A DNA stretch of 64,000 nt from assembly GCA_963727585.1 (NCBI GenBank), contig CAVSHH010000003.1:738493-802492 (forward strand), given 5' to 3'. Positions within the stretch are counted from its first letter, which is position 1, and each line of letters begins with the position of its first letter. Positions 7,989 through 60,635 of this stretch are shown here, piece after piece. The translations under genes were made by a program, and so were the position numbers. This stretch comes from an uncultured Chloroflexia bacterium (GTDB taxonomy: Bacteria; Chloroflexota; Limnocylindria; Limnocylindrales; CSP1-4). The notes beneath the pieces were generated by a model. The model was not told the DNA's origin, did not search any database, and worked only from the letters and a program-made list of their open reading frames with translations.

Positions 7989-7997
7989 TGGGGACGT

Positions 7998-18140: not shown

Positions 18141-18167
18141 CACCGCCGGACCCGGAGGCCGGTCGGA

Positions 18168-21940: not shown

Positions 21941-22458
21941 CGGGACGTCTCCAGGCGTTCGGGAGTGGGGGCGGGGGAGGCTTCATCGTGGGCCGCATGC
22001 AGCTCGTCGTGGAGCCGCTCGCGCACTCGGCGCATTGCCCGCGCGCCGGTGAGATAGGCGGCCAGCTCGTCATCGGTCAGCTCGTCGAGCATCCGGGCCA
22101 GGTGGTCACGCCGTTGGGCGGCCATCCCGTCGATCAGGCGATGGCCCTCGTCGGTGGCCGCGACCCGGATGATCCGGCGGTCAGCCTCGTCGCGCTGCCG
22201 CTCGACGAGCCCGCGCTGCTCCATCCGGTCGACGATGCCGGTCGCGCTGGCCTGGCTGACGTCCATCGCCTCGGCCAGGCCGCGCATCGGGAGCGCGCCG
22301 TCGGCCTCCAGGACAAGCAGCACATTGACGTGGACGAGCGACAGGCGCCCGCCCGGCCAGTGGCGCATCAGCGACATCGCCTTGGCCGGGTTGTGGGTAC
22401 CGATCTCGTCGAGGATCTCGGACAGGAGTGCCGTGCGGTTCTGTGCGTTGCGGTTCAT
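21937..22458 (-). CDS. MarR-family transcriptional regulator
   Basis: wHTH (LPMRGLAEAMDVSQASATGIVDRMEQRGLVER). Overlaps the downstream ABC gene by 4 nt, so this is a MarR-ABC-ABC operon. Confidence 0.8.
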   Translation of the reverse strand: MNRNAQNRTALLSEILDEIGTHNPAKAMSLMRHWPGGRLSLVHVNVLLVLEADGALPMRGLAEAMDVSQASATGIVDRMEQRGLVERQRDEADRRIIRVAATDEGHRLIDGMAAQRRDHLARMLDELTDDELAAYLTGARAMRRVRERLHDELHAAHDEASPAPTPERLETSR

Positions 22459-36467: not shown

Positions 36468-37382
36468 CTATCCGAACAACGCCTCGACCGACAGGTACCG
36501 CTCGCCGGTGTCGTAGCTGAAGGTCAGGATCCGCGAGCCGTCCGGGACCTGCGGAAGGAGCTCGGCGACCGCGGCCAGCGAGGCGCCCGACGACACGCCC
36601 ACCAGGAGCCCCTCCTCGCGCGCAGCCCGCTGCGCGTACGCGAACGCGTCCGGGGGCTCCACCTGGAGGATCCCGTCCAGCAGGTCCGTGCGCATGACGC
36701 CCGGGACGAACCCGGCGCCGATGCCCTGGATCGGGTGGGGCCCCGGCTCGCCGCCGGACAGGACCGCGGACAGCGTCGGCTCGACGGCGTACACCTTGAG
36801 GTTCGGCCAGCGGGGCTTGAGCACCTCGGCGACCCCCGTGATGTGGCCGCCGGTGCCCACCCCGGTGACGATGTAGTCAAGCCCGTCGGGGAAGTCGCGG
36901 GCGATCTCCTCGGCCGTCGTCCGGCGGTGGATATCGACGTTGGCCGGGTTGTCGAACTGCATCGGGACCCAGGCGCCGGGGGTCTGCTCGGCGATCTCGT
37001 TCGCACGCGCGATCGCCCCCTTCATCCCCAGCTCGCGCGGCGTGAGGTCGAGCTCGGCGCCGTACAGCTGCATCAGCTTCCGCCGCTCGATCGACATCGA
37101 TTCGGGCATGACGAGGATGAGGCGGTATCCCTTGATGGCGGCCACCAGGGCGAGGCCGATGCCGGTGTTGCCGGAGGTGGGCTCGACGATGACCGAGCCG
37201 GCCTTGAGCACGCCGCGCGCCTCGGCGTCCTCGATCATCGACAGGCCGATGCGGTCCTTGATCGAGCCGCCAGGATTCTGGCGCTCCAGCTTGGCCCAGA
37301 CGGTGACCCGGGGGTCATAGAGCTTGTTGATCCGGACATGCGGCGTGTTGCCGATGACCTCGAGCATGGAGTTGAAGGGCAC
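36468..37382 (-). CDS. cysK: Cysteine synthase A (O-acetylserine sulfhydrylase)
   Basis: [11 protein letters not shown]-lysine motif; [10 protein letters not shown]; GTGGHITGV. Confidence 0.9.
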
Positions 37383-37395
37383 GGGACGCTTCCTT

Positions 37396-38295
37396 TCAGA
37401 TCACGAAATCGACGGAATCGACAACCTCGGCCACGGTCCGGACCCGGACCTGGCTCTGGTGGTACACGAGCGAGTTGGCCGGTACCGAGTGGGTCAGCCA
37501 CACGTTGCCGCCGATGACCGAGTCGGCGCCCACGACGGTGTCGCCGCCGAGCACCGTGGCGTTGGCGTAGATCACCACCCGGTCCTCGATGGTCGGGTGG
37601 CGCTTGGTCCCCGACGCCTGCTTGGTCACCGAGAGCGCTCCGAGGGTGACGCCCTGGTACAGCTTGACGTTGTCGCCGATGAGCGCGGTCTCACCGATCA
37701 CGACGCCGGTGCCGTGGTCGATGCAGCAGCCGCGGCCGATCGTGGCGCCGGGGTGGATGTCGACCCCGGTCCGACCGTGGGCGATCTCGGAGATGATGCG
37801 CGGCACCAGCGGGATCCCGGCGCGGTGCAGGGTGTTGGCGATCCGGTGGAAGGCCAGGGCGAGAAATCCGGGGTAGGCGAGAACGACCTCCATCGTCCCG
37901 TGCGCCGCCGGGTCGCCTGCCTCGATCGCCTCCGCGTCGAGGGTCACCTGCTCGTGGATCTCGGGCAGGGCGAGATGGAAGTCGTGCGCCAGCTCCTCGG
38001 GCGTCGCCGGCAGCTTGTCGCGGAGCGACGCGAGAACCGGGACCAGCGCCCGGCAGCGGGCGTCCAGCTCGGCATGAATGCCGGCCGGGGTCCGCGGCGC
38101 GTGGCGGCCGTCGGGGAACAGCAGCGAGACGATGCCGTCGGCGAAGGCCCCGACCTGGTCGCGGTCGGGGAGCCGGTGGAACATCGCCGCCTCATCCTCG
38201 GCGATGTGCGCGGAGAGGGCCGCGAGGTCGGCTGGGTGGGCAATCTCCTCGTCATGCGGATGGACGAAACGACGTGATGACATGGGCAGCACCAA
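37396..38295 (-). CDS. cysE: Serine O-acetyltransferase
   Basis: Left-handed beta-helix hexapeptide repeats and the SAT N-terminal domain. Lies 14 nt upstream of cysK. Confidence 0.85.
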
Positions 38296-38608
38296 GTGGT
38301 GGGAACGGAAACGTGGCGAGGTCGGGGCCCGGGCGCGGGTCGGGCGGTCCGGGTCACCGTGCTCGGCCGGAGGCGACGCCAGGTGGACGTGACGCCAAGC
38401 GGAGGTTGGGCCGGCGTGCGTGGCGCGTCAGGCGCGCGGAGGAGGCGGCGTTATCGCCGCCGAGGACACGCGCAGGAGAGTCGCAGGGACGCCATGGCGC
38501 AAGGGTGCCGGGGAACTGGGCGCACGTCAACCGGCGGCGGATCGTCAACCGGCGGCGGATCGTCAAGGCGAGGTCGAGGGCCCGTTGGCACATGTATGCT
38601 CCGGGCAG

Positions 38609-39699: not shown

Positions 39700-39891
39700 C
39701 CCGGCCGGGCTTCGCCGCCCACCGGCCGAGCTTCGCCGCGCCCCGCCCGCGGCGTCGGGGACGGACCGTGACCTCCGGCAAGGCTCCACGAGCGCTCCAC
39801 TGTCACTCCATGTCCCAGGCGGATCGTGAGCTCCGGCGCCGAGATCCGGGCCGCCGCACTTGCGGCACACCAGCAAGGACACCTGCCGACG

Positions 39892-40548
39892 ATGAAGCGT
39901 CTCGCCATCCCGCTCACCATCGGGGCCCTCGCCGCGCTTGGCGCGGTCGCAGCCGTCTCGGCCGCCGATCCCGATGCCACGCCGGCCCCGGTCGCCACCG
40001 AGGCCCCGGTCGCCACCGCCCCGGTCGCCACCGAGGCCCCGGCGGCAACTCCCGCACCCGTCGCCAATCCGCCCCTGGTCCGTGGTCCGGACACCGGCAC
40101 GCTGAGCGGCATCCTGGGGATCAGCCAGTCCGAGCTCGCCCAGCTGCGCGCCCAGGGCCAGACGCTTGCCCAGGTCGCCGAAAGCCGGGGCATCGATCCC
40201 CAGCGGCTGATCGAGGCGCTGGTCGCCCAGTGGGGCGCCCGCATCGACGCCCGCGCCGCCGCCGGAGCACTGACCGCCGACCAGGCCGCGGCGCTCAAGG
40301 CCAATCTCCAGGTCGAGGCCAAGGCCATGGTCAACCAGGCCACGCCGGGCGGCATGCGCGGTGGCGCCGTCGGTGCAGGTCCGGGAGCCATGGGCGGCCG
40401 CGGGCCAGGCAACGGCACGGGCGGCGGCATGGGCCGCTGGAGCACCGACGACGGCGGCCAGCCCCGGGGCATGGGCCGCTGGGGCAACGGCTCGGGCGCC
40501 GGGAACGGCACCTGCCCGATGACCACTGCTCCGGGCACCGCTTCCTGA
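39892..40548 (+). CDS. Secreted protein with a Thr/Pro/Ala-rich linker and a Gly-rich C-terminus (hypothetical)
   Basis: Signal peptide MKRLAIPLTIGALAALGAVAAVSA. Sits upstream of the two-component system. Confidence 0.5.
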   Translation: MKRLAIPLTIGALAALGAVAAVSAADPDATPAPVATEAPVATAPVATEAPAATPAPVANPPLVRGPDTGTLSGILGISQSELAQLRAQGQTLAQVAESRGIDPQRLIEALVAQWGARIDARAAAGALTADQAAALKANLQVEAKAMVNQATPGGMRGGAVGAGPGAMGGRGPGNGTGGGMGRWSTDDGGQPRGMGRWGNGSGAGNGTCPMTTAPGTAS

Positions 40549-40616
40549 TCCGTCTCGAGGCGGGACGGCCGAGCGAGCTTGACGCTGCCCGGCCGTTCCC
40601 GCCTATGCTCGCGACC

Positions 40617-41324
40617 ATGCCGCGCATCCTGGTCGTCGACGACGAGCCCCACATCACCGAGGTCGTGGGGGCATATCTGGTCCGCGATGGCCACGAGGTG
40701 CTCACGGCGGCCGACGGCGACGCCGCTCTCGACCTCGCCCTCAACGGTTCGCCCGATCTCGTGGTTCTCGACGTGATGCTCCCCGGGCGGGGCGGGTTCG
40801 ACGTCCTGCGAGCGCTGCGCCGGGCCGGCAGCGAGGTGCCGGTCGTGATGCTGACGGCGCGCGACGATGTGATCGACCGGGTGGCCGGCCTCGAGATCGG
40901 CGCCGACGACTACGTCACCAAGCCGTTCGAACCCCGGGAGCTGGTCGCCCGGGTGAGCGCCATCCTGCGCCGCACGGGCGGGATCGCGATCGCTCCGCTG
41001 GCGGCAGCCGGCGACGGCCCCGATCCCACCCGCTGGTTCGACCTGCACATCGACACGGCCGCGCGCGAGGTGCGCCGCGGTCCGGGCGCGCTGCCCCTCA
41101 CCCGGGCCGAGTTCGACCTGCTGGTGGCGTTCGTGGAGCGGGCCGGCATCGCCCTCACGCGCGAGCAGCTGGGGGAGCGGGTGTTCGGCGAGGCGTTCGA
41201 CGCCTTCGACCGCACCATGGACAGCCACGTCAAGAACCTCCGCCACAAGCTGGGCTCTCGGCCCGGTGGCGGCGCCTACATCGAGACCGTGCGCGGGGTC
41301 GGCTACCGGGGCGCCCGGCCGTGA
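40617..41324 (+). CDS. OmpR-family response regulator
   Basis: Receiver domain (ILVVDDE...DLVVLDVMLP) plus a winged-helix output domain (VETVRGVGYR). Confidence 0.9.
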   Translation: MPRILVVDDEPHITEVVGAYLVRDGHEVLTAADGDAALDLALNGSPDLVVLDVMLPGRGGFDVLRALRRAGSEVPVVMLTARDDVIDRVAGLEIGADDYVTKPFEPRELVARVSAILRRTGGIAIAPLAAAGDGPDPTRWFDLHIDTAAREVRRGPGALPLTRAEFDLLVAFVERAGIALTREQLGERVFGEAFDAFDRTMDSHVKNLRHKLGSRPGGGAYIETVRGVGYRGARP

Positions 41325-42472
41325 GCCTCCGGGTCCGGCTGGCCGCGGCGATGGCCCTGGTGGCCGTGCTGACAGCTGCGGCCGTCGCACTGGCGGCGCC
41401 GGCCATCGTGGGGCGCGGGTTCGCCACGGCACTGTCCGGGGTGACCGGCGTGCCGGGCGCCGGGCCCGGCGTCGGGCCCGGCGGGATGGGCAATGGCATG
41501 GGACCCGGCGGGGGCGCGGTCGGCGGCATGGGTCCGGGCGCCATGTACTGGCAGCAGGTCCAGCAGGACACCATCGTTGCCCTGCTCCTGGTTGCGGCCG
41601 GGGCCGCCCTGATCGCCTCGCTGGTCGGGGTCGTGATCGCGGCCCGGACCGTGCGACCTCTCGGCCGGCTCCAGGCCACCGCCGACGCGGTCGCGCGCGG
41701 CGACCTCGACGCCCGGTCCGGGCTCGGGGACCGTACCGACGAGATCGGAGCCCTCGGCCGCTCGTTCGATGCCATGGCGGCCGACCTGGGGGCGACCGAG
41801 GCCGCCCGGCGGCGGTTCTTCGCCGACGCGGCCCACGAGCTCAAGACGCCCCTCTCGGTGATCGATGCGACCACGTCCGCCGTGATCGACGGCGTCTACC
41901 GGCACGAGGACCGGCATCTCGGGACGATCCGCGACCAGGCCCGGCTGCTGAGCCGGATCGTGGACGACCTGCGCACCGTGTCGCTCGCCGAGACCGGGTC
42001 GCTGCCGCTCCGGTCGGAGGTCGTGCCGCTGGCGCCGGTCCTGGCCGCCGTGGCCCAGGATCTGGCCGCGCGCGCATCGGTCGCGGGCGTGCGGGTCGAC
42101 GCGACTGACGCCGGCGTTCTCGCCGTGCGCACGGACCCGGACCGGCTGCGCCAGGTGCTCAACGCGCTGGGCGACAACGCCCTCCGCTACGCAGGCCCAG
42201 GGGGCTGGATCCGGCTGTCCGCCGCCGCGGCGACCCCGGGACGAGTGTGGCTGTCGGTGGTCGATTCCGGCCCTGGCATCGCGCAGGCGGACCTGGCCCA
42301 CGTGTTCGATCGCTTCTACCAGGCCGACCAGGCGCGCGACCGGGCGACCGGGACCAGCGGACTGGGGCTCGCCATCGTGCGGGCCCTGGTCGAGGCGTCC
42401 GGTGGGCACGTCCGAGCCGCCAACGAGCCCGGGGCCGGCGCCCGGATCGACCTGGACTTGCCGGCCGCCTGA
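41321..42472 (+). CDS. Sensor histidine kinase (HAMP + HisKA + HATPase)
   Basis: H-box AAHELKTPLSVI. N, G1 and G2 boxes present. Two TM helices flank a periplasmic loop. Confidence 0.85.
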   Translation: MSLRVRLAAAMALVAVLTAAAVALAAPAIVGRGFATALSGVTGVPGAGPGVGPGGMGNGMGPGGGAVGGMGPGAMYWQQVQQDTIVALLLVAAGAALIASLVGVVIAARTVRPLGRLQATADAVARGDLDARSGLGDRTDEIGALGRSFDAMAADLGATEAARRRFFADAAHELKTPLSVIDATTSAVIDGVYRHEDRHLGTIRDQARLLSRIVDDLRTVSLAETGSLPLRSEVVPLAPVLAAVAQDLAARASVAGVRVDATDAGVLAVRTDPDRLRQVLNALGDNALRYAGPGGWIRLSAAAATPGRVWLSVVDSGPGIAQADLAHVFDRFYQADQARDRATGTSGLGLAIVRALVEASGGHVRAANEPGAGARIDLDLPAA

Positions 42473-42702: not shown

Positions 42703-42745
42703 TGATATATGTCACAAGCATATAGATATGCATGACAGACATCAG
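42703..42745. promoter_or_regulatory. AT-rich imperfect inverted repeat overlapping the ArsR start (putative ArsR/SmtB operator)
   Basis: tgatATATGTCAcaagcatatagATATGCATGACAgac in an otherwise 70% GC context. Confidence 0.5.
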
Positions 42746-43135
42746 CGCATTGGCAGGAGCCACGTGTTCGACCCCGTCAGCGAGATTGACCTGATCCAGA
42801 TCGGGCTCATCCGGGCGCTCGCCGGCACACACCGGCTGCGGATCGTCCACCTCCTCGGTGCGCAGCGGATGGAGGTGCGGGAGCTGGCCCTGGCGCTCGA
42901 CCTCCCACAGGCCACTGTCTCGCAGAACCTCGCCGCCATGCGGGCCGCCGGGCTGGTGGAGGCGACCCGTGAGGGCCGTACCGTCACCTATCGCCTCGCC
43001 GATCCCGAGATCCTCGCCGCCTGCGACCTCATGCGCAGCGTCATCATGCGACGGCTCTCGGCCATGGGCAGCCTCGCGGCGGCCGCCAACGATGTCCCGG
43101 CCATTCCCCAACCCGCGCAGGTGACCCACCGATGA
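42728..43135 (+). CDS. ArsR/SmtB-family transcriptional regulator with a single Cys
   Basis: HTH (RLRIVHLLGAQRMEVRELALALDLPQATVSQNLAAMRAAGLV). Alternative GTG start at 42764. Confidence 0.8.
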   Translation: MHDRHQRIGRSHVFDPVSEIDLIQIGLIRALAGTHRLRIVHLLGAQRMEVRELALALDLPQATVSQNLAAMRAAGLVEATREGRTVTYRLADPEILAACDLMRSVIMRRLSAMGSLAAAANDVPAIPQPAQVTHR

Positions 43136-43542
43136 GCGACGCGCCTCTCAACCTCGTCCTGTTCTCCGGGACCGCCGACAAGCTGCATGCGGCGGCCACG
43201 CTGGCCGCCGGCGCGGCGGCCATGGACCGGCCGGTGAACATCCTGCTCCAGTACTGGGCTCTCGACGCGTTCCGCACCGAGCGGCTGGCCGAGAGCCACG
43301 GCCTGGCCTGGGACAGCACCGCCGACGGTGCCAGCCGCCCGGTCAACGGTGTCCGATCCATTCCCTGGCTGGACACGTTCCGGATGGCCAAGGAGCTCGG
43401 GACGATCTCGATCAACGCCTGCTCGGGCTCGCTCGACACGCTCGGGATCGAGGTCACCGAGCTCGACCCGATCGTGGACTCCGCCGGCGGGATCGCCACC
43501 TTCCTCATGACCGCCGACGACGGTCAGATCGTCTTCATCTAG
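43132..43542 (+). CDS. DsrE/DsrF-like sulfur-relay family protein
   Basis: LVLFSGTADKLHAA...INACSGS. ATGA overlap with arsR. Confidence 0.65.
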   Translation: MSDAPLNLVLFSGTADKLHAAATLAAGAAAMDRPVNILLQYWALDAFRTERLAESHGLAWDSTADGASRPVNGVRSIPWLDTFRMAKELGTISINACSGSLDTLGIEVTELDPIVDSAGGIATFLMTADDGQIVFI

Positions 43543-43570: not shown

Positions 43571-43939
43571 ATGGCCGACAACGAGAAGCTGGTGTTCATG
43601 GTCACGCACGGTCCCGACCACCCGGAGCACGCCACGATCCCGTTCGTGATGGCGGCGGCCGCGCTGGCGTCCGACGTGGCCGTCTCGATCGGCCTCCAGG
43701 CCGACGCCGTGACGATCGTCAAGCGGGGCGTCGCCGAGACCGTCGAGGCACCGGGCTTCCCACCCCTGGCCAAGCTGCTGGCCGACGTCCGCGAGCTGGG
43801 AGCCTCCCTGCTCGTCTGCAACCCGTGTCTCAAGAGCCGGGGCATCGCCCCGGACGAGCTCGTCGAGGGTGCCGAGATCGTCGCGGCCGCCCGCTTCGTC
43901 GTCGAGCTGACCTCTGCCACCAACGCGCTGTCCTACTAG
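43571..43939 (+). CDS. DsrE-family protein (TusD/DsrE-like, Cys-containing)
   Basis: LVFMVTHGPDHPE...LLVCNPCLKSRG. Confidence 0.7.
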   Translation: MADNEKLVFMVTHGPDHPEHATIPFVMAAAALASDVAVSIGLQADAVTIVKRGVAETVEAPGFPPLAKLLADVRELGASLLVCNPCLKSRGIAPDELVEGAEIVAAARFVVELTSATNALSY

Positions 43940-43954
43940 GAGGATTCCAGCACC

Positions 43955-44215
43955 ATGACCACCACCGCGACCGAGCTCGAGGCCATCACCGACGCTGCTG
44001 TCATCGACGCACGGGGCACCGCCTGCCCCGGCCCGCTGCTCGAGGCCAAGAAGGGCATGACCGGCGTTCCCGTGGGATCGACGATCGAGATCTGGTCGAC
44101 CGACCCCGCCACCAAGAACGACATCTCGGCCTGGTCCGCCAAGGTCGGGCACGACTTCCTGGGCGTGCTCGAGGCCGACGGCTACGACCGCGTGTTCGTC
44201 GTCCGCCGCAAGTAG
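43955..44215 (+). CDS. tusA: TusA-like sulfurtransferase
   Basis: IDARGTACPGPLLEAKKGM, the canonical CPxP motif. Confidence 0.8.
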   Translation: MTTTATELEAITDAAVIDARGTACPGPLLEAKKGMTGVPVGSTIEIWSTDPATKNDISAWSAKVGHDFLGVLEADGYDRVFVVRRK

Positions 44216-44300: not shown

Positions 44301-44756
44301 ATGACCGTACCCGTCGCGACGGAGCCACCCGCACCCGGGGACACGTTCACCCCCCGGATCCTCGTGTTCTCCACCAACAACATCAGTGACCCCGGCATCG
44401 ACTTGGCCGGCAGCTCCCACATGCACTACTCGCCCGGCGTGAACGTGATCGGGCTGCCGTGCACCAGCGGCATCCGCCCATCGTGGATCGTCCACGCGTT
44501 CGAGGCCGGGTTCGACGGCGTGTTCATCGCCACGGACGGCGAGGAGTGCTCGTACCTGCCCGATTGCGCCAAGCGCTCCAACCGGATCGTGCAGAGCGCC
44601 CAGAAGACCCTCAAGGAGCGTGGCCTGGACGCCGGCCGCGTCCGGGTCGCGGCGATCTGCTCGGTCTGCGCCGAACCGTTCACCAAGCACATGGTCACGT
44701 TCGCCGAGGCGCTCAAGGGGATGGGTCACGCCACGTTCCAGGGAGCAGCCCGATGA
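44301..44756 (+). CDS. MvhD/FlpD-like hydrogenase iron-sulfur subunit domain protein
   Basis: PRILVFSTNN...GVNVIGLPCTSGIRPSWIVHAFEAGFDGVFIATDGEECSYLPDC resembles pfam02662. Confidence 0.6.
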   Translation: MTVPVATEPPAPGDTFTPRILVFSTNNISDPGIDLAGSSHMHYSPGVNVIGLPCTSGIRPSWIVHAFEAGFDGVFIATDGEECSYLPDCAKRSNRIVQSAQKTLKERGLDAGRVRVAAICSVCAEPFTKHMVTFAEALKGMGHATFQGAAR

Positions 44757-47527
44757 CCGAGACGCTCGACGTCTGCGCGACGCGCGACGAGACGGCCCCG
44801 CTCGACTACGACGTGCTCGTGGTGGGCGCCGGCATCGGCGGCATGGAGTCCGCGCTCAAGCTGGGCGACATGGGCTACAAGGTCCTGCTCGTGGAGAAGG
44901 AGGCCTCGGTCGGCGGCAAGATGATCCTGCTGTCCAAGGTGTTCCCCACGCTCGACTGCGCGTCCTGCATCTCGACGCCCAAGATGGCCTCGACGATCCA
45001 CCACCCGAACATCACCCCCTACACCTACAGCCACGTCGACTCGATCAAGACCCGGGCCGACGGCTCGTTCACGGCCACGGTGATCCGCCAGGCCCGGTTC
45101 GTCGACATCGACGCCTGCACCGGGTGCCAGAAGTGCGAGACGGCCTGCACGGTCGCGGTGCCCGACCAGTTCAACGCCGACCTGGTCGCCCGGCGCGCGG
45201 CGCACATCACGTTCCCCCAGGCGGTGCCCAAGAAGGCCGTCATCGACCGCCAGGGCTCCTCGCCCTGCTCGTTTGCCTGTCCGGCCGGCATCGCCGCCCA
45301 CGGCTACGTGAGCCTCATCCGCAGCGGGCTCGACGAGGAGGCCTACCGGCTGGTGCTCGAGGCGACCCCGCTCGTCGGCACCCTCGGGCGCGCCTGCTAT
45401 GCGCCGTGCGAGGGCGAGTGCACCCGGGGCAGCCTGGAGGGAACGCTGCCGATCCGCCGTCTCAAGCGGTTCGCCTCCGACGCGCACGACGCGTCGGGCA
45501 GCGACAACGGGATCGAGCTTCCCGAGCCCAACGGCAAGCGGGTCGCGATCGTCGGCTCCGGGCCCACCGGCCTGACCGCCGCCTTCCAGCTCGCCCGCCG
45601 AGGATACGGCGTCAAGATGTTCGAGGCGGCCCCGGTCGCCGGCGGGTTCCTGCGCCTGGGCATCCCGGCCTACCGCCTGCCTGCCGCGGTCGTCGAGCGT
45701 GACATCGAGAACGTCACCGGGCTGGGCGTCGAGATCGCCGTCAACACCCCGGTCAATGACCCTGGCGCCCTGCGGGCCGACGGCTTCGACGCTGTGCTGG
45801 TGGCGACCGGCACCCACCGGTCGACCGGCCTGGGCGTGCCCGGCGAGGACCGCCTGGGTGTCATGGGCGGCACCGACTTCCTGCGCAAGGTCAACCTCGG
45901 CGAGCCGATGGATGTCGCCGGCAGGCGCGTGGTCGTGGTCGGCGGCGGCAACGTCGCGATGGACGCCGCGCGCGTCGCCCGCCGGCTGGGGGCCGCCTCG
46001 GTGACGGTCGCCTACCGGCGGTCGCGCGACGAGATGCCCGCCCACCACGTGGAGTCGGTGGACGCGGAGAAGGAGGGGGTCCAGTTCCGCCTCCTGGTCG
46101 CCCCGGCCGAGGTCATCGGCAACGCCGACGGTGCGGTCACCGGCCTTCGCTGCACCGAGATGCGTCTGGGCGCTCCCGATGCCTCGGGCCGCAAGTCGGT
46201 CCAGCCTGTCCCGGGCTCCTCGGTCACCATCGGCGCCGACCTGATCGTCGCCGCCATCGGCATGAAGCCCGACACCACCGCCTTCGGCGACCGGGTCGCG
46301 GTCCTGCCCAACGGGCGGCTCGCGGTCGACACGGCCAGCTGCCAGACCGCCGTCGAGCACGTGTTCGCCGCGGGCGACGCGGTCAACGGGCCCACCGACA
46401 TCACCCGGGCCGTGGGCGAGGGCCGCAAGGCCGCGTACCAGATCGACGCCTGGCTCAACGATCGCCCGTTCGACAGCTGGGACGACCGGCTGCCGGTGGT
46501 CGACAAGGAGCAGGTGCTGGCCCGCCAGAAGGCGTACACGGCCTCTGCGCCCACGCCCGACGGCATGGATCTGCAGCCGAGGCCCACCGACTTCCACGAG
46601 ATCGAGGCGCCGCTCACCGAGGCCGAAGCCCGGCGCGCCTCCGGCCGGTGCATCGACTGTGCCACCTGCTCCGAGTGCCGCGAGTGCGTCAACGCCTGCC
46701 CCGTCGACGGCTGCATCGACCTCCGCGCCACCGACCAGGAGCAGGAGATCCGGGTGGGGGCCGTCGTGGTCTCGACAGGGTTCAAGCTGTTCCCGGCCGA
46801 CCTCAAGCCGGAGTATGGGTACGGCGTGTACAACAACGTCATCACCGGGATGCAGATGGACCGGCTGCTCGCCCCGACGCGACCGTTCAACACCATCCTG
46901 CGGCCGGGCGATGGCAAGGTCCCCGAGCGGATCGCGTACATCCTGTGCACCGGGTCGCGCGACCAGACCGTCGGCAACCCGCTCTGCTCGCGCTTCTGCT
47001 GCATGTACTCGATCAAGCAGAACCAGCTGCTCATGGGGGCCCTGCCGCTGGCCGACGTGACCGTCCACTACATGGACATCCGCGCCCCCGGCAAGCGCTA
47101 CGACGAGTTCTACGAGCAGGCCAAGGCAATGGGCGCCAACTACGTGAAGGGCCGCGTCGCGGACGTCACGGAGACGCCCGCCGGCGACCTGGTGCTCAAG
47201 TACGAGGACATCGAGAACGGCGGCGCGATCACCGAGGCCGAGTACGACCTGGTCGTGCTCGCGGTGGGCGTGCAGCCCAACAGGGACGCCGAGCGGCTGT
47301 TCAACGTCGGCGAGCTGGCACTCGACGAGTGGCGGTACGTCGACGAGCCGGAGGAGGACGTGAACCCGGGCCAGACCAGCATCCCGGGCGTCTACGTGGC
47401 GGGGGCCGCGTCGGGCGCCAAGGACATCGCGGACTCGATCCTCCACGCGGGCGCGGCGGTGGCCCAGGTCGCCGCTCACCTCGAGCGGACCAAGCCGCTG
47501 CCGACGATCGAGATGGTGCCGGCATGA
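44753..47527 (+). CDS. HdrA-like flavoprotein with an inserted GltD-like NAD(P)H-dependent oxidoreductase module (QmoA-like + GltD)
   Basis: N-terminal HdrA FAD domain (VLVVGAGIGGMESAL...EKEASVGGKM), then a GltD Fe-S domain and two Rossmann folds (KRVAIVGSGPTGL...VVVVGGGNVAMD...AAGDAV), then the HdrA C-terminal ferredoxin and CSRFCCMYS signature. Confidence 0.8.
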   Translation: MTETLDVCATRDETAPLDYDVLVVGAGIGGMESALKLGDMGYKVLLVEKEASVGGKMILLSKVFPTLDCASCISTPKMASTIHHPNITPYTYSHVDSIKTRADGSFTATVIRQARFVDIDACTGCQKCETACTVAVPDQFNADLVARRAAHITFPQAVPKKAVIDRQGSSPCSFACPAGIAAHGYVSLIRSGLDEEAYRLVLEATPLVGTLGRACYAPCEGECTRGSLEGTLPIRRLKRFASDAHDASGSDNGIELPEPNGKRVAIVGSGPTGLTAAFQLARRGYGVKMFEAAPVAGGFLRLGIPAYRLPAAVVERDIENVTGLGVEIAVNTPVNDPGALRADGFDAVLVATGTHRSTGLGVPGEDRLGVMGGTDFLRKVNLGEPMDVAGRRVVVVGGGNVAMDAARVARRLGAASVTVAYRRSRDEMPAHHVESVDAEKEGVQFRLLVAPAEVIGNADGAVTGLRCTEMRLGAPDASGRKSVQPVPGSSVTIGADLIVAAIGMKPDTTAFGDRVAVLPNGRLAVDTASCQTAVEHVFAAGDAVNGPTDITRAVGEGRKAAYQIDAWLNDRPFDSWDDRLPVVDKEQVLARQKAYTASAPTPDGMDLQPRPTDFHEIEAPLTEAEARRASGRCIDCATCSECRECVNACPVDGCIDLRATDQEQEIRVGAVVVSTGFKLFPADLKPEYGYGVYNNVITGMQMDRLLAPTRPFNTILRPGDGKVPERIAYILCTGSRDQTVGNPLCSRFCCMYSIKQNQLLMGALPLADVTVHYMDIRAPGKRYDEFYEQAKAMGANYVKGRVADVTETPAGDLVLKYEDIENGGAITEAEYDLVVLAVGVQPNRDAERLFNVGELALDEWRYVDEPEEDVNPGQTSIPGVYVAGAASGAKDIADSILHAGAAVAQVAAHLERTKPLPTIEMVPA

Positions 47528-49326
47528 GCGAGCAGCAGCTGCCCGCCGGCACGCGGCCGGTCGTCGCGGCGCCCGAGGGCAACAGCGAGGGTGGGGCCGG
47601 CGGACGCCGGATCGGCGTCTACGTCTGTCACTGCGGCGGCAACATCTCGGACTACGTCGACGTGGACAAGGTCATCGACGGGATCAAGGACGACGGCGAC
47701 GTCGTGGTGTCCCGGACCACGATGTTCGCCTGCTCCGACGCGTCGCAGCAGGAGATCGAGGCCGACATCAGGACCAACGACCTCGACGGCCTGGTCGTCG
47801 CCTCGTGCTCGCCCAAGCTCCACACCTACACCTTCCGGGGAGTAGCCTCGCGAGCCGGGCTGAACCCCTACGAGTACACCCAGGTCAACATCCGGGAGCA
47901 GTGCTCCTGGGTCCACACCGACGACCACGAGGGCGCCACGGCCAAGGCCACCGCGCTCGTCGCGGCCGGCATCGGGCGGACACGGAACACCGTGCCGCTC
48001 GAGCCGATGGTCGTGGACACGATCCCGCACACGCTCGTCGTCGGGGGTGGCATCGCCGGTCTCCGGGCTGCGATCGGCCTGTCCGACATCGGTCTCAAGG
48101 TCACCCTCATCGAGCGCGAGCTCGAGCTGGGTGGCTGGGTCCGCGAGCTGGGCCCGATGTACCCCCACGACCGCAAGGGCGCCGACCTGATCGAGGGCCT
48201 GGTCGCCGAGGTCCACAAGCGCGAGGCGATCACCGTCCTCACCGGGACCGAGCTGGCCGGCAAGTCCGGCAGCTTCGGCAACTACCGCGTCAGTCTCCGG
48301 GTCGGGGGCGAGGGCGCAGGCACGATCGACGTCGCGGTGGGCACGATCGTCGTGGCCACCGGCTTCGACGAGTACCGGCCCGAGGAGGGCGAGCTCGGCT
48401 TCGGGCTCGACGGTGTCGTCACCCTGTCGCAGTTCAAGGCACTGGTGGACGGATCCGAGCGGGAACGCCTCGCCTGGAACGGCCGCCCGGTCCGCAGCGT
48501 GGCCTACGTCTATTGCGTCGGCAGTCGCGGCACGGCCGGCTGCGCGAACCAGTACTGCTCCCGGTTCTGCTGCGCGGCAACGGTGCAGACTGCGGTGCAG
48601 GTCTCGGGCCTGGACCCGTCTATCCGCCAGTTCCATCTCTACCGCGACATGCGGACCTACGGCAAGTTCGAGCCGCTGTACACCGAGGCCCGCGACCGCG
48701 GGTCGGTGTTCCTCAAGTTCGACAACGACGAGCCACCGGTGGTCGCGACGGCTCCTGGCGGATCGCTCACCGTGACCGTCCGGGACCTGCTCACCGAGCG
48801 GACCCAGCTCGATCTGCCGGTCGATCTCGTGGTCCTCGTCACGGGCATGGTCCCGCGCGAGAACCAGGGGCTGGTCGACATCCTCAAGCTGCCGGCCGGC
48901 AGCGACGGGTTCTTCAACGAGATCCATCCCAAGCTGCGGCCGGTCGAGACCGTGGTCGACGGCGTGCTGATCGCGGGCGCCTGCCAGGGCCCCAAGACGT
49001 CGGCCGAGTCGGTCACCTCGGGCCTGGCCGCCGTGACCCAGAGCGCCGCGATCCTCAAGAAGGGCTTCACCGAGCTCGATCCGCTGGTGGCGGTCGTCGA
49101 GCCCGATGCCTGCACGGCCTGCGGCGACTGCCTCACGGCGTGTCCCTATGACGCGATCTCGATGGCCGAGGGGGCCGACCGGCACATCGCGGCCATCAGC
49201 GCCACCGGCTGCAAGGGCTGCGGCGGCTGCGTGCCGATCTGTCCCGAGAACGCGATCGACCTGCTCGGCTACACCGACGCCGAGATCACCTCGATGATCG
49301 AGGGCCTGGTGGAGGTGCCCGTCTGA
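47524..49326 (+). CDS. hdrA: Heterodisulfide reductase subunit A-like protein (HdrA/QmoB-like)
   Basis: N-terminal Cys cluster VYVCHCGGNI...MFACSD...VVASCSPK. FAD domain LVVGGGIAGLRAA. C-terminal 2x[4Fe-4S] CTACGDCLTACP / CKGCGGCVPICP. Confidence 0.85.
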   Translation: MSEQQLPAGTRPVVAAPEGNSEGGAGGRRIGVYVCHCGGNISDYVDVDKVIDGIKDDGDVVVSRTTMFACSDASQQEIEADIRTNDLDGLVVASCSPKLHTYTFRGVASRAGLNPYEYTQVNIREQCSWVHTDDHEGATAKATALVAAGIGRTRNTVPLEPMVVDTIPHTLVVGGGIAGLRAAIGLSDIGLKVTLIERELELGGWVRELGPMYPHDRKGADLIEGLVAEVHKREAITVLTGTELAGKSGSFGNYRVSLRVGGEGAGTIDVAVGTIVVATGFDEYRPEEGELGFGLDGVVTLSQFKALVDGSERERLAWNGRPVRSVAYVYCVGSRGTAGCANQYCSRFCCAATVQTAVQVSGLDPSIRQFHLYRDMRTYGKFEPLYTEARDRGSVFLKFDNDEPPVVATAPGGSLTVTVRDLLTERTQLDLPVDLVVLVTGMVPRENQGLVDILKLPAGSDGFFNEIHPKLRPVETVVDGVLIAGACQGPKTSAESVTSGLAAVTQSAAILKKGFTELDPLVAVVEPDACTACGDCLTACPYDAISMAEGADRHIAAISATGCKGCGGCVPICPENAIDLLGYTDAEITSMIEGLVEVPV

Positions 49327-49571
49327 TGACTGTCGCGAACCGGGACATCCGGGAGGTGATCCGGGAGGAGCCCGTGATGCGTCCCAGGATCCTTGCCGCG
49401 CTGGCGGGCGGACCGCTGTCCGTGCCCCAGATCGCCGAGGCGATCGGCGCCCCGACCCACGAGGTCGTGTTCTGGGTCATGGGGATGCGCCGCTACGGCT
49501 GGCTGGCGGAGATCAAGGGGTCCGACGCCGACGGCTTCTTCACCTACGAGACCACGGGGCGGAACCACTGA
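49326..49571 (+). CDS. Small winged-helix DNA-binding-like protein (hypothetical)
   Basis: 81 aa; start/stop overlap both neighbours; helix-turn-helix-like PRILAALAGGPLSVPQIAEAIGAPTHEV. Confidence 0.45.
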   Translation: MTVANRDIREVIREEPVMRPRILAALAGGPLSVPQIAEAIGAPTHEVVFWVMGMRRYGWLAEIKGSDADGFFTYETTGRNH

Positions 49572-50800
49572 TGACCGCGACCACCGTTCCGGCCGGCAGC
49601 ACGCCGGCCGCACCCGCCGCCGTCCGGCTCGACCTCGGGCTGTATCCCGAGATCCAGCGGTACGGGGCCAGCGACATTTCCGCCTGCTTCTCGTGCGGGA
49701 CCTGCTCCGCGACCTGCCCCATGAGCCAGACCGACGGAACCTTCCCGCGGCGGATCATCCGCTACGCCCAGCTGGGCATGAAGGACGCGCTGCTGAGCTC
49801 CAAGGAGCTCTGGACCTGCTACCAGTGCGGCGAGTGCGCGGAGACCTGCCCCACCCAGGCCGACCCGTCCGAGTTCATGGCCGCGACCCGGCGCTACGCC
49901 ATCGCCGGCTATGACAGGACCCGCCTGGCCGCCACGATGTACACGCGCCCCGTCCTGGCAACCGTCGTCGCCGTCGCCCTGGCGCTGTTCTTCGCCGCGT
50001 TCATGCTCTCGGCGCGCGGGCCGATGGACTCGGCCACGCTCGCGATCTTCGAGTGGATCCCGTCCGAGCTGATCCACAACCTGGGCATCGTGCTCATGGT
50101 CCTGGTCGTGCTCGCCGGGGTCGTCGGAATCGCCTCCATGGCACGTGGCATCGCCCGGCGCGAGGGCGAGAGCCTACGCTCCGTGCTGGGCTCCCGGGCC
50201 GCGCTCGCGCGGACCGGCCGCGCGCTGGCGTACTCCGTGGGCCGCGAGTCCCTGGCCCAGGCCCGCTTCCGGGGGGAGTGCGAGGCCGACGACGTCGCCA
50301 TGGCGGTGCCCTGGTACCGCCGCCGGTGGCTGGTTCACGCGCTCGTCGTGTGGGGCTTCCTGGGGCTGCTCGCGGCCACCGGGCTGGACTACGGCCTGGC
50401 CCTCATGGGCATCAAGGAGACGGGGACGCCGGTGCCGATCTGGTATCCGGTCCGGCTCCTGGGCACGGTCGCCGGTGCGGCGCTGGTGTACGGATCCACG
50501 GTCCTGATCGTCGACCGCTACCGCGCGGCCAACCGGTCCGTGGTCAAGTCGACGACGGCCGACTGGCTGCTGCTGGCCCTGTTGTGGGTCACCGCGGTCA
50601 CCGGCTTCGCGATCGAGCTCGCGCTCTACCTGCCGGGCGCCCCGGTGTGGGGCTACTGGCTGTTCCTGGTCCACGTGGCGGTCGCGATGGAGCTCGTGCT
50701 CCTCGCCCCGTTCATGAAACTCGCCCACGCGGTGTACCGCCCCGTGGCCCTGTTCTTCGTGTCGCTGGCGCGAGAGCCCAAGGAAGGAGCCCAGGCATGA
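49571..50800 (+). CDS. HdrC-like 2x[4Fe-4S] domain fused to an HdrE/DsrM/NarI-like membrane domain (QmoC-like)
   Basis: CFSCGTCSATCP and CYQCGECAETCP, followed by 5-6 TM helices with conserved His. Confidence 0.75.
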   Translation: MTATTVPAGSTPAAPAAVRLDLGLYPEIQRYGASDISACFSCGTCSATCPMSQTDGTFPRRIIRYAQLGMKDALLSSKELWTCYQCGECAETCPTQADPSEFMAATRRYAIAGYDRTRLAATMYTRPVLATVVAVALALFFAAFMLSARGPMDSATLAIFEWIPSELIHNLGIVLMVLVVLAGVVGIASMARGIARREGESLRSVLGSRAALARTGRALAYSVGRESLAQARFRGECEADDVAMAVPWYRRRWLVHALVVWGFLGLLAATGLDYGLALMGIKETGTPVPIWYPVRLLGTVAGAALVYGSTVLIVDRYRAANRSVVKSTTADWLLLALLWVTAVTGFAIELALYLPGAPVWGYWLFLVHVAVAMELVLLAPFMKLAHAVYRPVALFFVSLAREPKEGAQA

Positions 50801-51346: not shown

Positions 51347-51889
51347 GTGACCGACAACCCTCCTCCTGCCGACGCGGCCACGGCCGAGCTGGCAGCCGAC
51401 CCGGGGCTTGACTCGCTGCTCGCCACCAGCGAGGCATACCACGCGCTCCTGATGCCGCACGTTGACCGGCTCCTGACCCTCGCCGAGATGGTCGGGCGCG
51501 TGGATTGCTCGGCACTGCACGCGCTCTACAACGAGGAGTACCGGTTCATCTCCGGCCAGTACCTGCCGCACCAGGACGCCGTCGAGGCGAACCTGTACGA
51601 CCGGCTGGAGTCGATCATGGGACCGCGCCACACGATGGCTCCCATGCGCGAGGAGCACAAGATCGTCCGGGCCCTGATCGACGAGCTGGGCAGCTACCAG
51701 GTCCACGAGGACAACTGCAGCTGGGATGAGCTGCAGGGCCTCGCCGTCCGGCGTGTCCTGTACCGCCTGCACGCCCTGCTCAAGGTGCATCTCGCCGAGG
51801 AGGAGCAGTACCTCGCCGTCCTCGATCGGAGCCTCCCGGACATCGAGAAGGACGAGCTGGCGCGGCGCCTCGACCACGCCACGATCTAG
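51347..51889 (+). CDS. Hemerythrin-like domain protein (paralog of 50797-51288)
   Basis: Shares the TMAPMREEH...LHALLKVHLAEEE blocks with the upstream gene. Confidence 0.65.
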   Translation: MTDNPPPADAATAELAADPGLDSLLATSEAYHALLMPHVDRLLTLAEMVGRVDCSALHALYNEEYRFISGQYLPHQDAVEANLYDRLESIMGPRHTMAPMREEHKIVRALIDELGSYQVHEDNCSWDELQGLAVRRVLYRLHALLKVHLAEEEQYLAVLDRSLPDIEKDELARRLDHATI

Positions 51890-56832: not shown

Positions 56833-56884
56833 TCCGCAGTCATTTCCGCCGGAGCGCGTGTCCTGAACCGGGGAGGAGCTGCGG

Positions 56885-58807
56885 TTGGCCGTCGGCGTCG
56901 TCGCCGAGATCAAGGGCCGTCTGCCCGTCGCCGACGTGGTGGGCGAGGTGGTCCAGCTGAAGAAGGCGGGCACCACCCTCAAGGGGCTGTGCCCGTTCCA
57001 CGGCGAGAAGACCCCGTCGTTCGTGGTGACGCCGGCGCGCGACACCTGGCACTGCTTCGGCTGCGGCAAGCACGGCGACATCTTCACGTTCGTGATGGAG
57101 CGGGACTCGGTCGGCTTCCCCGAGGCGCTCAAGCAGCTGGCCGCACGGGCGGGCGTCGAGCTCGACGAGCGGACCAAGGCCGAGGACGCGCGCAACGCCC
57201 GACTGCGCACGGTGCTCGAGGCGGCGATCGCCTTCTACCACGCGGTGCTCACCAGGTCCAGGACGGGCGAGGCGGCGCTGGCGTATCTCCGCGACCGCGG
57301 GTTCACCGACGAGACCATCGAGAAGCACCAGCTGGGGTGGGCGCCTGGCGGCTGGGACACGCTGGTCCGCCAGCTGGCCACGAAGCGCCAGATCAACCCA
57401 CCCGAGCTGCTCGACGTCGGCCTGGCGAGCCCTCGCCAGCGCGGCGGTGGGGTCTACGACCGGTTCCGGGAGCGGGTGATCTTCCCGATCCGCGACGCCA
57501 ACGGGCACCCGGTCGGCCTGGGCGGGCGGATCCTGGGCAAGGAGGGCTCGGCGCCGGACGGGAGCGACCGCGGGCCGAAGTACCTCAATTCGCCGGCGAC
57601 CCCGCTGTTCGACAAGAGCCGCACGCTGTACCTCATCGATCGCGCCAAGACCTCGATCCGCAAGACCGGGCAGGCGGTGATCGTCGAGGGGTACACGGAC
57701 GCCCTGATGGCGCACCAGGCGGGCTTCGAGAACGTGATCGCGAGCCTGGGCACGGCGCTGACCCCCGGACAGGTGGCGCTCATCACCCGCTACGGCAAGC
57801 GGATCGCGCTCGCCTACGACGTCGACGCGGCCGGCGAGAAGGCAGGCACCTTCGGGGCCACCGCGCTCGAGGAGCTCATCCGGCAGCTGGCCGCCGACTC
57901 CTCGGGCGTCGAGCTCGACGACGTGCGGGTCGTCCGCCTGCCCGAGGGCAGGGACCCCGACGAGGTCCTCCGCGACGACCCCGACCGGTGGCGCGAGGAG
58001 GTCCGGACGGCACGACCTATCGTCGACCACCTGGTCGATGTCCACGCCCGGGCGAACGACCTCAAGGCGGCCGGCGGCAAGGCCCGCTTCGCGGAAGCGG
58101 CCCTGGACGTGGTCCGCAGTCTGCCGCCGCTGATGCGCGACCCGTATCTCCAGCAGATCGCCCAGCTCTCGGGCATCGGGCCGGGCGCGCTGATGGTGGC
58201 CCTCCGGGAGGGGAGTGGCAAGCGCTCGGACACCCGGTTCACCGCGAGCGCCGTGGTGGCCGCGGCGGACGCGCTCCCGGTCAACGACATCCTGCGCGGC
58301 GTCTCCCGCACGGAGCAGGAGCTGCTGCGCCTGGTCCTGCTCGTGCCCGAGGCGCACGACGAGCTGCTCGACGGCGTGGGGCCGGACCGGATGGCCAGCC
58401 AGGTCGCGCGCGAGCTGTTCCGGGCGGTGGCCGTGGCCCGCGCCCGCGACGACCACGGGGTCCGCCCGCCGTTCGCCCTGGCCGCAATCCTCGAGGGCCT
58501 CGACGAGGAGAGCCGGGCGCTGGGACAGGCGCTGGTGTCCCGGCCAGGACCCGATTCCCGCGGCCACTCCGACCGGTCGCTGGCCTACGAGATCCAGCGC
58601 CTCGTGCTCGAGCTCGACGACGCGGACTGGGACGAGAAGAGCGGCTACAACCGGGACGCCCTCGGCGAGGCCGAGCGCGACGGTGACGCGCCCGCCGTCG
58701 AGCGACTGATGCTCGAGCGTCGGCTGCTCAACGAGCAGCGCCGGTCCCTCGACCGCCGCCGTGACCAGACCCGCCTCCTCAACCGCACCGCCGCCGCAGC
58801 GAGGTGA
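56885..58807 (+). CDS. dnaG: DNA primase
   Basis: Zn-ribbon [11 protein letters not shown]...CFGCG, TOPRIM ([10 protein letters not shown]), DnaB-binding C-terminal domain. Non-ATG (TTG) start. Confidence 0.9.
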
Positions 58808-58874
58808 ACCCGATGCCCCAGTCCATTCCCCGCGTCCCCCCGCACGGCGAACCCGATCTCCGGAGGTCCCGCTG

Positions 58875-60635
<1,761 letters not shown>

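Follow-up and report, generated by a model that had tools for sequence, protein, structure and literature searches.

HdrL was described in 2009 as a "heterodisulfide reductase/glutamate synthase fusion" of Desulfobacterium autotrophicum that always adjoins mvhD and was proposed to receive electrons from NADH (Strittmatter et al., PMC2702500). The name was later reused for a protein of Syntrophobacter fumaroxidans, again with an adjacent MvhD (Sedano-Nunez et al. 2018, PMC5947623), and has also been used for Desulfurivibrio. In ANME-1, the proteins HdrA9, HdrA10 and HdrA11 carry an NfnB-like insertion breaking up the inserted ferredoxin domain, and these HdrA/NfnB fusions may have two bifurcation sites (Chadwick et al. 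2022, PMC9012536). Here we analyse an HdrL homologue and the nine-gene operon around it in an uncultured Chloroflexia bacterium (assembly GCA_963727585.1, contig CAVSHH010000003.1, positions 738,493 to 802,492), on a 64-kb stretch of about 72% G+C that we refer to as the window. A sequence-only reading of the window had implied that the fusion is new; this was overstated, because the architecture has been published both as HdrL and as the ANME-1 HdrA/NfnB insertion. The less ordinary part of this known architecture, HdrL since 2009, is the conserved operon in which it sits. A published description of a tusA-mvhD-hdrL-hdrA-qmoC cluster was not found in the literature searched, which does not exclude a prior one, and as far as we searched, a split, QmoC-linked and TusA/DsrE-associated HdrL variant spanning three Terrabacteria phyla has not been described. 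We propose, with a probability of roughly 0.55, that the operon encodes a Qmo-like membrane complex that connects NADPH and menaquinone with one further partner, which is probably sulfur carried by TusA and DsrE-family proteins.

Like the published HdrL proteins, the window protein combines HdrA and an NAD(P)H-binding GltD-type module in one chain, with mvhD adjacent (44301-44756). Unlike the large HdrL of about 1500 amino acids (aa), it has its second HdrA half encoded by a separate, translationally coupled gene, and the window version has no selenocysteine. The published HdrL proteins belong to strict anaerobes and have HdrABC, DsrABC, Fdh-like proteins or POR as partners, whereas the partners here are a QmoC-like membrane subunit and TusA/DsrE carriers in Chloroflexota, Dormibacterota and Actinomycetota. 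The insertion topology of ANME-1 HdrA9-11 is the one we mapped in the window HdrL, a likeness drawn from the published description; the ANME-1 proteins are archaeal, lie in Hdr/Fdh gene clusters and have been proposed to serve the oxidation of coenzyme M and coenzyme B thiols (CoM-SH/CoB-SH).

The operon also has much in common with QmoABC: each combines a pair of HdrA-related flavoproteins with an MvhD-type module, and the QmoC subunit of Qmo, with its HdrC-like domain and di-haem membrane domain, has a putative counterpart in the QmoC-like protein. In both systems QmoC is exchangeable with HdrBC among relatives, and the exchange between QmoABC and QmoAB-HdrBC is already known (PMC8477390). 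Qmo complexes with HdrA-like flavoproteins ("type II") have been reported, some of them from organisms that possess neither Dsr nor Apr (PMC10504309); we found no aprBA genes or Apr-type domains among the scanned open reading frames (ORFs) of the window or in the flanks of three related loci (L078, L077 and L081). The operon also departs from QmoABC in that MvhD is a separate protein, whereas in Qmo it forms the C-terminus of QmoB, that one of the flavoproteins bears an NADPH module, unlike QmoA and QmoB, and that the QmoC-like protein scores under the family cutoff. This module shares with StnC, NfnB and GltD the Fe-S domain and the FAD and NADPH Rossmann folds, and with StnC an EA..RCxxC segment after the body. 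Unlike these three proteins, it is not free-standing; it is embedded in a ferredoxin-domain loop and has no NfnA/PyrK-like or GltB partner. Finally, the association of an Hdr-type flavoprotein operon with TusA and DsrE-family sulfurtransferases recalls the sHdr system (Tanabe et al. 2024, PMC11094781), which occurs in Chloroflexota and Actinomycetota too (PMC11094781). Unlike sHdr operons, the window operon is without sHdrB1/B2/C1/C2, LbpA and the lipoate machinery, and has an NADPH module and a quinone subunit instead; Pfam and NCBIfam searches of the operon ORFs returned no CCG-domain or lipoate-binding gene. The structure of sHdrA (6tjr_A) is a distant match only, both for HdrL and for the second HdrA.

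Results

HdrL is an HdrA with a nested GltD-like module

The hdrL gene (44753-47527, + strand) is a 924-aa ORF that starts with an ATG at 44753 and contains no internal stops, within a single long coding frame (44390-47527, + strand) whose G+C content at third codon positions (GC3) is 0.91. Residue numbers below refer to this 924-aa protein. The ORF and every motif quoted in the sequence-only reading are present in the translation: CSFACP (172-177), CYAPCEGECTRG (215-226), GSGPTGL (268-274) and GGGNVAMD (397-404), and in the second half CIDCATCSECRECVNACP (633-650), CSRFCCMYS (745-753) and GVYVAGAASGAKD (879-891). The Pfam matches follow the GltD/NfnB order of an Fe-S domain, Fer4_20 (170-247; 3e-15, 56.4 bits versus a cutoff of 25.8), and then FAD and NAD(P)H Rossmann domains, Pyr_redox_2 (263-557; 9e-45, 153.7 bits versus 26.1). 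An additional FAD Rossmann start lies at 20-58, and ferredoxin-type motifs at 115-133 and 634-666. With NCBIfam, the HdrA models hit HdrL in two stretches (HdrA2 at 2.5e-137, best stretch 630-911), while the GltD, NfnB and PRK12771 models hit 140-667 (PRK12771 at 1.3e-142 over this whole range; gltA at 4e-86 over 168-568). HdrL scores below the equivalog cutoffs of both parents: 459 bits versus 1100 (NF040770) and 312 versus 1400 (NF041778) for HdrA, and 289.5 versus 471.75 (TIGR01316) for GltD.

Comparison with PDB sequences, using 8oh5_C, 9bov_A, 5jca_L and 2vdc_G as GltD-family chains, gave the same picture. The StnC chains 8oh5_C and 9bov_A match HdrL 165-645 at 1e-103 to 1e-105, the NfnB-type chain 5jca_L matches at 1e-69, and GltD and NfnB-type chains as a group match 168-570 at 1e-56 to 1e-75. 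HdrA itself (5odc_A) matches at 9e-96, with HdrL 634-912 falling on 5odc_A 288-567. Given StnC, NfnB and GltD matches between 1e-57 and 1e-105, the middle segment is not the normal thioredoxin-reductase domain of HdrA. The proposed domain order of an HdrA N-terminal part, a GltD-like module, and the remainder of the HdrA inserted ferredoxin domain with the C-terminal part is thus borne out by Pfam, NCBIfam, PDB and the deletion alignment described next.

For insertion mapping, residues 166-600 were removed in silico and the remainder was searched again. This shortened protein aligns colinearly with HdrA 5odc_A 146-290 and 288-566, so the insertion lies in the inserted ferredoxin domain, after its first CxxCxxCxxxC motif and before its second. 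Residues 1-165 (44753-45247, + strand; 5odc_A 146-290) comprise the start of the HdrA thioredoxin-reductase-like FAD domain, with GAGIGG and DCASC, and the first CxxCxxCxxxC of the inserted ferredoxin domain (C122-C132). The nested GltD/NfnB/StnC-like module at about 166-632 (45248-46648, + strand; Fer4_20, Pyr_redox_2 and StnC matches) contains the Fe-S domain cysteines C172, C176, C215, C219 and C223, the FAD Rossmann motif GSGPTGL, the NAD(P)H Rossmann motif GGGNVAMD followed by YRRS, and a linker that stops before RCIDC (C633, C636). Residues 633-924 (46649-47527, + strand; 5odc_A 288-566) hold the RCxxC pair, the second ferredoxin motif (C639-C649), the remainder of the HdrA FAD domain and the cluster motif C732/C745xxxCC750. 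HdrA-type FAD motifs are present as GAGIGG at 25-30 (GxGxxG) and GAASGAKD at 884-891 (G(A/V)xxGxKD), and the cysteines of the HdrA cluster motif C...CxxxCC (C732, C745, C749, C750) and of the DCxxC pair (C69, C72) align with those of 5odc_A. Among the HdrA parts assigned from the sequence, the FAD domain and the inserted ferredoxin domain stand; the N-terminal domain of the four-domain HdrA architecture and its ferredoxin domain at the C-terminus are absent from HdrL and are supplied by the adjacent paralogue.

The nested module is nearest to StnC (residues 102-574 of 9bov_A and 8oh5_C, at 357 and 352 bits), including the linker and the EA...RCxxC segment after the flavin body. This departs from the canonical GltD order, in that the RCxxC pair (C633, C636) follows the body and is not N-terminal. 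HdrL 621-655 gives a weak alignment (E 0.09) to residues 18-52, at the N-terminus of canonical GltD (7mfm_I), and the Fer4_20 match begins at profile position 30, with the first 29 positions missing. Together with the logic of the motifs, these two observations are suggestive of a circularly permuted GltD module, in which C633 and C636 would probably complete the first GltD cluster. The segment TDFHEIEAPLTEAEARRASGRCIDC after the GltD body (window 46610-46660, about HdrL 621-636) resembles the N-terminal GltD segment, and StnC is arranged alike.

Nearly all of the cysteines are conserved in colinear fusions at 37-49% identity (C69/C72, C122-C132, C172/C176/C215/C219/C223, C467, C633/C636, C639-C649 and C732/C745/C749/C750). 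The sequence of HdrL thus shows two FAD sites, one pyridine-nucleotide site and conserved ligands for some five [4Fe-4S] clusters. HdrL and the StnC chains both have YRRS behind the second Rossmann fold. In the GltD-type family a YRR motif favours NADPH, which suggests NADPH as the pyridine nucleotide of HdrL.

The second HdrA paralogue completes a split HdrL

The gene downstream of hdrL (47524-49326, + strand) encodes a second HdrA paralogue of 600 aa, and the hdrL stop and its ATG overlap in ATGA. The protein aligns with 5odc_A 5-234 and 317-649, skipping 235-316; it comprises the four-Cys domain at its N-terminus, an FAD domain and, at its C-terminus, the 2x[4Fe-4S] ferredoxin domain, and is without the inserted ferredoxin domain and the DCxxC pair. 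The two proteins are therefore complementary, the second HdrA supplying the domains that HdrL misses and missing the inserted domain that HdrL has. A large HdrL from Syntrophaceae (P0124, 1495 aa) unites both: its residues 8-912 are colinear with window HdrL 21-913 at about 40% identity, and its residues 924-1487 are colinear with the second HdrA at 36% identity (E 1e-106). Judged by this colinearity, the two window genes together encode the large HdrL in split form. Because both halves form a single chain in P0124, there is strong comparative evidence that HdrL and the second HdrA would act as one pseudo-dimeric unit. Where HdrA and HdrL keep DCxxC, the second HdrA and the matching half of P0124 have PHDRKGAD or HTIEGKD; with the second half lacking the pair, the pseudo-dimer would be asymmetric at this ligand position.

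The fusion and its operon are conserved across three phyla

More than 120 clusters (90% identity) cover 97-100% of HdrL at 76-92% identity, and most of them are labelled Chloroflexota or Ca. Limnocylindrales. In a library of 50%-identity representatives, 5214 proteins match HdrL at E < 1e-30, and the nested order HdrA-N, GltD, HdrA-C occurs in 60 of the best 150. Eighteen of these 60 are short (up to about 970 aa, several being shorter fragments), 17 also have the N- and C-terminal HdrA domains, and 25 exceed 1300 aa; named members of the nested-order clusters belong to Syntrophaceae/Syntrophobacterales, Dehalogenimonas and Caldisericota. A locus scan with one genome per species gave 404 loci with an HdrL relative, and our operon comparisons use the best 80 of these 404. 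The 80 loci come from Chloroflexota/Limnocylindria, Dormibacterota and Actinomycetota and show the same continuous ORF in independent assemblies. Among the carriers are the cultured Actinotalea lenta and a strain of Propionicimonas, and both isolates and closed chromosomes are represented.

We compared the window operon proteins with these 80 loci by tblastn. The order tusA-mvhD-hdrL-hdrA-orf81-qmoC, together with a DsrE-family gene, is kept in all 80 as far as the contigs reach, across the three phyla, and the flanking genes are unrelated between the loci examined. TusA lies upstream of mvhD-hdrL in 79 of 80 loci, the contig of the last (L060) stopping before that position; the 81-aa protein encoded by orf81 is found in 75 of 80, at 53-85% identity, and the remaining five contigs likewise stop short of its place. 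The upstream genes vary with the phylum. Chloroflexota loci usually have arsR and one or two DsrE-family genes, with arsR present in most of them and absent from the Actinomycetota loci, and the 122-aa DsrE/DsrF-like gene is kept in most Chloroflexota loci. In Actinomycetota and Dormibacterota, a full-length DrsE_2 gene lies between mvhD and hdrL, its product in Actinomycetota being 159 aa long (5e-64).

More distant relatives retain the core and exchange its last member. Locus L082, with an HdrL 49% identical to that of the window, reads DrsE_2-TusA-MvhD-HdrL-HdrA-78 aa-HdrC-HdrB(CCG), and locus L087, at 43% identity, reads rhodanese-TusA-MvhD-HdrL-HdrA-94 aa-HdrD-like; the 78-aa and 94-aa proteins are homologues of the 81-aa protein in the equivalent position. 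By gene order, then, QmoC and HdrCB/HdrD alternate in one slot of a sulfur-carrier-linked subfamily. Other HdrL/HdrA/MvhD trios are without TusA and the small protein, and lie beside an aldehyde:ferredoxin oxidoreductase (AOR) and a PyrK/NfnA-like gene, or beside further Hdr genes; in Dehalogenimonas, an HdrD-like gene adjoins a complete HdrA bearing the nested module. Because AOR- or Hdr-linked trios exist outside sulfur contexts, HdrL/HdrA/MvhD is a reusable, general redox module or adaptor. In L085 (3980-13940) the trio stands between the aldehyde:ferredoxin oxidoreductase and the PyrK/NfnA-like flavoprotein, where the GltD module could form a complete Nfn-like unit.

The remaining operon members include sulfur carriers and a QmoC-like subunit

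All nine operon genes lie on the + strand, and many of their stops and starts overlap, indicative of translational coupling. The last gene (49571-50800, + strand) encodes the QmoC-like subunit of 409 aa, with an HdrC-like 2x[4Fe-4S] domain and a six-helix, di-haem-b-type membrane domain (Pfam Fer4_8 and Nitrate_red_gam). It matches positions 2-360 of the 360-position NCBIfam qmoC model (NF038018) at 211.6 bits versus a cutoff of 300. The protein has about six transmembrane segments. Eight cysteines and four transmembrane histidines (H169, H256, H368 and H386), the predicted ligands for two clusters and two haems, are invariant in 69 orthologues. In L081, a close relative, genes for a chlorite-dismutase-like HemQ/ChdC and a ferrochelatase immediately precede the operon (6306-8104), and haem-biosynthesis genes in this place fit a haem-containing QmoC.

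The MvhD/FlpD-like [2Fe-2S] subunit (151 aa; 44301-44756, + strand; FlpD 2.5e-28 in Pfam) matches positions 647-774 of the NCBIfam HdrA2 model, which form its C-terminal MvhD part, and the mvhD stop overlaps the hdrL start. Upstream of it are the genes for the sulfur carrier TusA (86 aa with a CPGP Cys motif; 43955-44215, + strand; TusA 2.9e-18), a DsrE/DsrF-like sulfurtransferase (122 aa; 43571-43939, + strand; DsrE 1.6e-16) and a DrsE_2-like DsrE-family protein (136 aa; 43132-43542, + strand; DrsE_2 2.3e-10, over residues 6-53 only). The first gene encodes an ArsR/SmtB-family regulator (42728-43135, + strand; HTH_5 7e-10 in Pfam, HTH_metalloreg 3.7e-21 with 74.7 bits versus a cutoff of 55 in NCBIfam), and its stop overlaps the start of the DsrE-family gene at 43132. 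The regulator has one cysteine only (C99). We rejected it as a BigR/SqrR-type persulfide sensor on account of this single cysteine and a BigR match of 39 bits versus a cutoff of 155.

Between the second hdrA and qmoC lies the gene for an 81-aa protein without cysteines (49326-49571, + strand), conserved in position and predicted to form a winged helix. It has no Pfam or NCBIfam match. A single-sequence AlphaFold2 (AF2) model has the topology H-H-H-E-E at a predicted local distance difference test score (pLDDT) of 65, and Foldseek against the PDB gave generic winged helix-turn-helix matches only (E > 0.04); from this pLDDT 65 model, a DsrD-like or other specific similarity was not established. 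The protein has the invariant motif R..RE..R...EE...IL...P.T.P.IA...P..E...W.MGMRRYG...E...GYF.Y. In HdrL operons linked to TusA its gene always follows the second hdrA and precedes qmoC (or HdrC/HdrD); non-sulfur HdrL operons are without it.

Neighbouring genes

Directly upstream of arsR, the window encodes an OmpR-type response regulator and a HAMP/HisKA histidine kinase (39768-42472, + strand), with homologues upstream in about a dozen Chloroflexota loci (e.g. L004, L005, L009, L011, L020, L023 and L028). The listed response-regulator ORF is extended at its N-terminus by some 280 aa that are probably untranslated. Some 4 kb upstream of the operon are a cysK-like gene (PALP, 1.5e-70) and an adjacent gene for a hexapeptide-repeat, cysE-like acetyltransferase (36468-38427, - strand). 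An assimilatory role suggested by this pair was rejected, the neighbourhood not being kept in L081, L078 and L077. Just downstream of the operon lies a hemerythrin-domain gene (51347-51889, + strand), which has counterparts in L081 (15997-16485 and 17107-17667); most Chloroflexota loci, unlike those of Actinomycetota, have homologues close to the cluster on one strand or the other, and the product may be an accessory that senses O2/NO or iron. Further along, dnaG (primase) and a gene for a primary sigma-70-type factor (56867-60635, + strand) form a housekeeping pair unrelated to the operon. The G+C content falls to 0.67-0.69, against a mean of about 0.72, at window 8001-10000 and 18001-22000, and no tRNA or Rfam elements were found in the window.

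Discussion

The proposed complex can be laid out on the solved methanogen Hdr, in which electrons leave the bifurcating FAD at low potential through the inserted ferredoxin domain and at high potential through the HdrA/HdrC clusters, and the MvhD/VhuD [2Fe-2S] subunit is the input, bound via the N- and C-terminal regions of HdrA (PMC13518236). In the window version, the electron wire would run from NADPH over the GltD-FAD, two GltD clusters and two inserted-ferredoxin clusters to the HdrA-type FAD. The sequence-only reading had taken the domain order to imply direct intramolecular transfer between the pyridine-nucleotide site and this FAD. The architecture and the implied transfer hold up, and had been published already; "direct" does not, because the two GltD-module and two inserted-ferredoxin clusters, four predicted [4Fe-4S] clusters in all, intervene, with ligands conserved down to 37% identity. 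From gene fusion and synteny, HdrL would pair with the downstream HdrA paralogue as a pseudo-dimer, and MvhD, by homology to the methanogen Hdr as well, would dock on the second HdrA as a third port. The HdrC-like clusters and two haems b of the QmoC-like subunit would link this pair with menaquinone.

By analogy, NADP(H) would thus sit on the low-potential arm via the GltD module and menaquinone on the high-potential arm via QmoC, while a third redox partner of intermediate potential would enter via MvhD, coupled by flavin-based bifurcation or confurcation. With textbook potentials of about -74 mV for menaquinone and -320 mV for NADP, a partner with a potential between the two would fit, and the thiol/disulfide or persulfide/sulfide couples on TusA and DsrE fall in this range. 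Persulfide or disulfide chemistry on the TusA and DsrE-family carriers may be the most likely identity of the third partner, which is the weakest step of the proposal. The reaction could run in either direction.

In favour of this Qmo-like complex are the retention of tusA-mvhD-hdrL-hdrA-orf81-qmoC across 80 loci with unrelated flanks, and the exchange of the QmoC slot in L082 and L087 while TusA, MvhD, HdrL, HdrA and the small protein stay. Several points weigh against it. The window operon has no HdrB/CCG subunit or other obvious sulfur-transforming enzyme for TusA/DsrE-bound sulfur, and HdrL/HdrA/MvhD trios also occur in AOR- or Hdr-linked, non-sulfur contexts, so that what ties the complex to sulfur is synteny alone. 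The ArsR regulator is without the two-Cys signature of persulfide sensors, and the QmoC match falls below the NCBIfam cutoff. Flavin bifurcation at either FAD is proposed by topological analogy to solved Hdr complexes, and a complex of this operon type is known from genes alone. Domain packing and inter-cofactor distances could not be read from the AF2 model of HdrL (30-sequence alignment), which was poor (pLDDT 61.5, predicted template modelling score 0.44, Fe-S segments below 50). We put forward only tentatively, as less likely than not, the fuller version, in which a previously uncharacterised membrane complex of MvhD, HdrL, HdrA, the winged-helix protein and QmoC, widespread in aerobic or facultative soil and freshwater Terrabacteria, would couple TusA/DsrE-bound sulfur (a persulfide or disulfide at about -200 to -270 mV) to both menaquinone and NADP+ by HdrA-type bifurcation or confurcation.

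A simpler machine would be a plain, non-bifurcating NAD(P)H:menaquinone oxidoreductase, with a linear path from GltD over the Fe-S chain and both HdrA flavins to QmoC, and with TusA and DsrE as co-regulated sulfur-trafficking proteins that are not its substrates. GltD-type modules do serve as simple NADPH inputs in glutamate synthase and dihydropyrimidine dehydrogenase, and the window operon has neither an NfnA-like partner, unlike L085, nor a catalytic sulfur enzyme. Co-regulation, however, hardly explains why TusA is linked to mvhD-hdrL-hdrA over three phyla, even where HdrB/HdrD replaces QmoC, and two HdrA-type flavins plus MvhD make an elaborate scaffold for a linear dehydrogenase. We consider this joint reading unlikely, if worth keeping in view.

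The complex could instead use NADPH to reduce sulfane sulfur or disulfides on proteins (TusA-SSH, or a disulfide of TusA/DsrE), serving the detoxification or assimilation of reactive sulfur, with QmoC mainly a membrane anchor or overflow route. The translationally coupled arsR-dsrE-dsrE-tusA genes directly upstream would suit such an enzyme, as would the HdrB/HdrD CCG disulfide-reductase subunits encoded in L082 and L087, the rhodanese of L087, and the cysK and cysE-like genes 4 kb upstream in the window. The window version, however, has no CCG domain, its cysK/cysE neighbourhood is not kept in L081, and in QmoC every haem and cluster ligand is invariant, which points to a functional quinone site and not to a mere anchor. 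On balance, a dedicated sulfane reductase seems a rather poor candidate.

It is also conceivable that the GltD/NfnB-like FAD bifurcates, as in NfnAB and StnABC, in place of the HdrA FAD; the protein would on this view have two bifurcation sites in series. The kinship of the module with StnC and NfnB-type proteins and the PyrK/NfnA-like gene that accompanies HdrL in L085 are in line with this, and the possibility was raised by Chadwick et al. for the ANME-1 fusions (PMC9012536). We regard it as quite improbable: bifurcation of the Nfn type depends on another acceptor branch by the flavin, namely the NfnA [2Fe-2S] cluster and FAD, and neither the window operon nor any of the 80 related loci was found to encode such a subunit. 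That a gltD-like gene and split hdrA fragments were joined by an assembly error or a frameshift, a concern that the sequence-only reading had also raised, is excluded, with nothing found in its favour: a colinear, full-length, continuous ORF occurs in more than 120 clusters and in 80 independently assembled loci, including isolates and closed chromosomes, the entire ORF reads in one frame at a GC3 of 0.91, and the HdrA halves would be non-functional alone because the ferredoxin motifs are split between them.

What may give the Qmo-like operon its interest is the context of the split HdrL/HdrA pair, which in Limnocylindria, Dormibacterota and Actinomycetota alike occurs with a QmoC-like subunit and always with TusA and a DsrE-family protein. 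If the proposal is true, the cultured Actinotalea lenta and Propionicimonas would offer a genetically tractable system in organisms that are not strict anaerobes, and a model, both cultivable and tolerant of oxygen, for confurcation by Qmo, whose mechanism has long been debated. Such a system could show by what means quinone chemistry and a low-potential partner are coupled in HdrA/Qmo-type flavoproteins, what role the NADPH module of HdrL plays, and how sulfur carriers feed Hdr-like complexes without HdrB. For the cell, the complex could use reduced sulfur to make NADPH with no need for reverse electron flow or, in the opposite direction, reduce sulfane sulfur with NADPH and menaquinol. It would then be a candidate sulfur-linked redox trait for abundant and poorly understood soil lineages.

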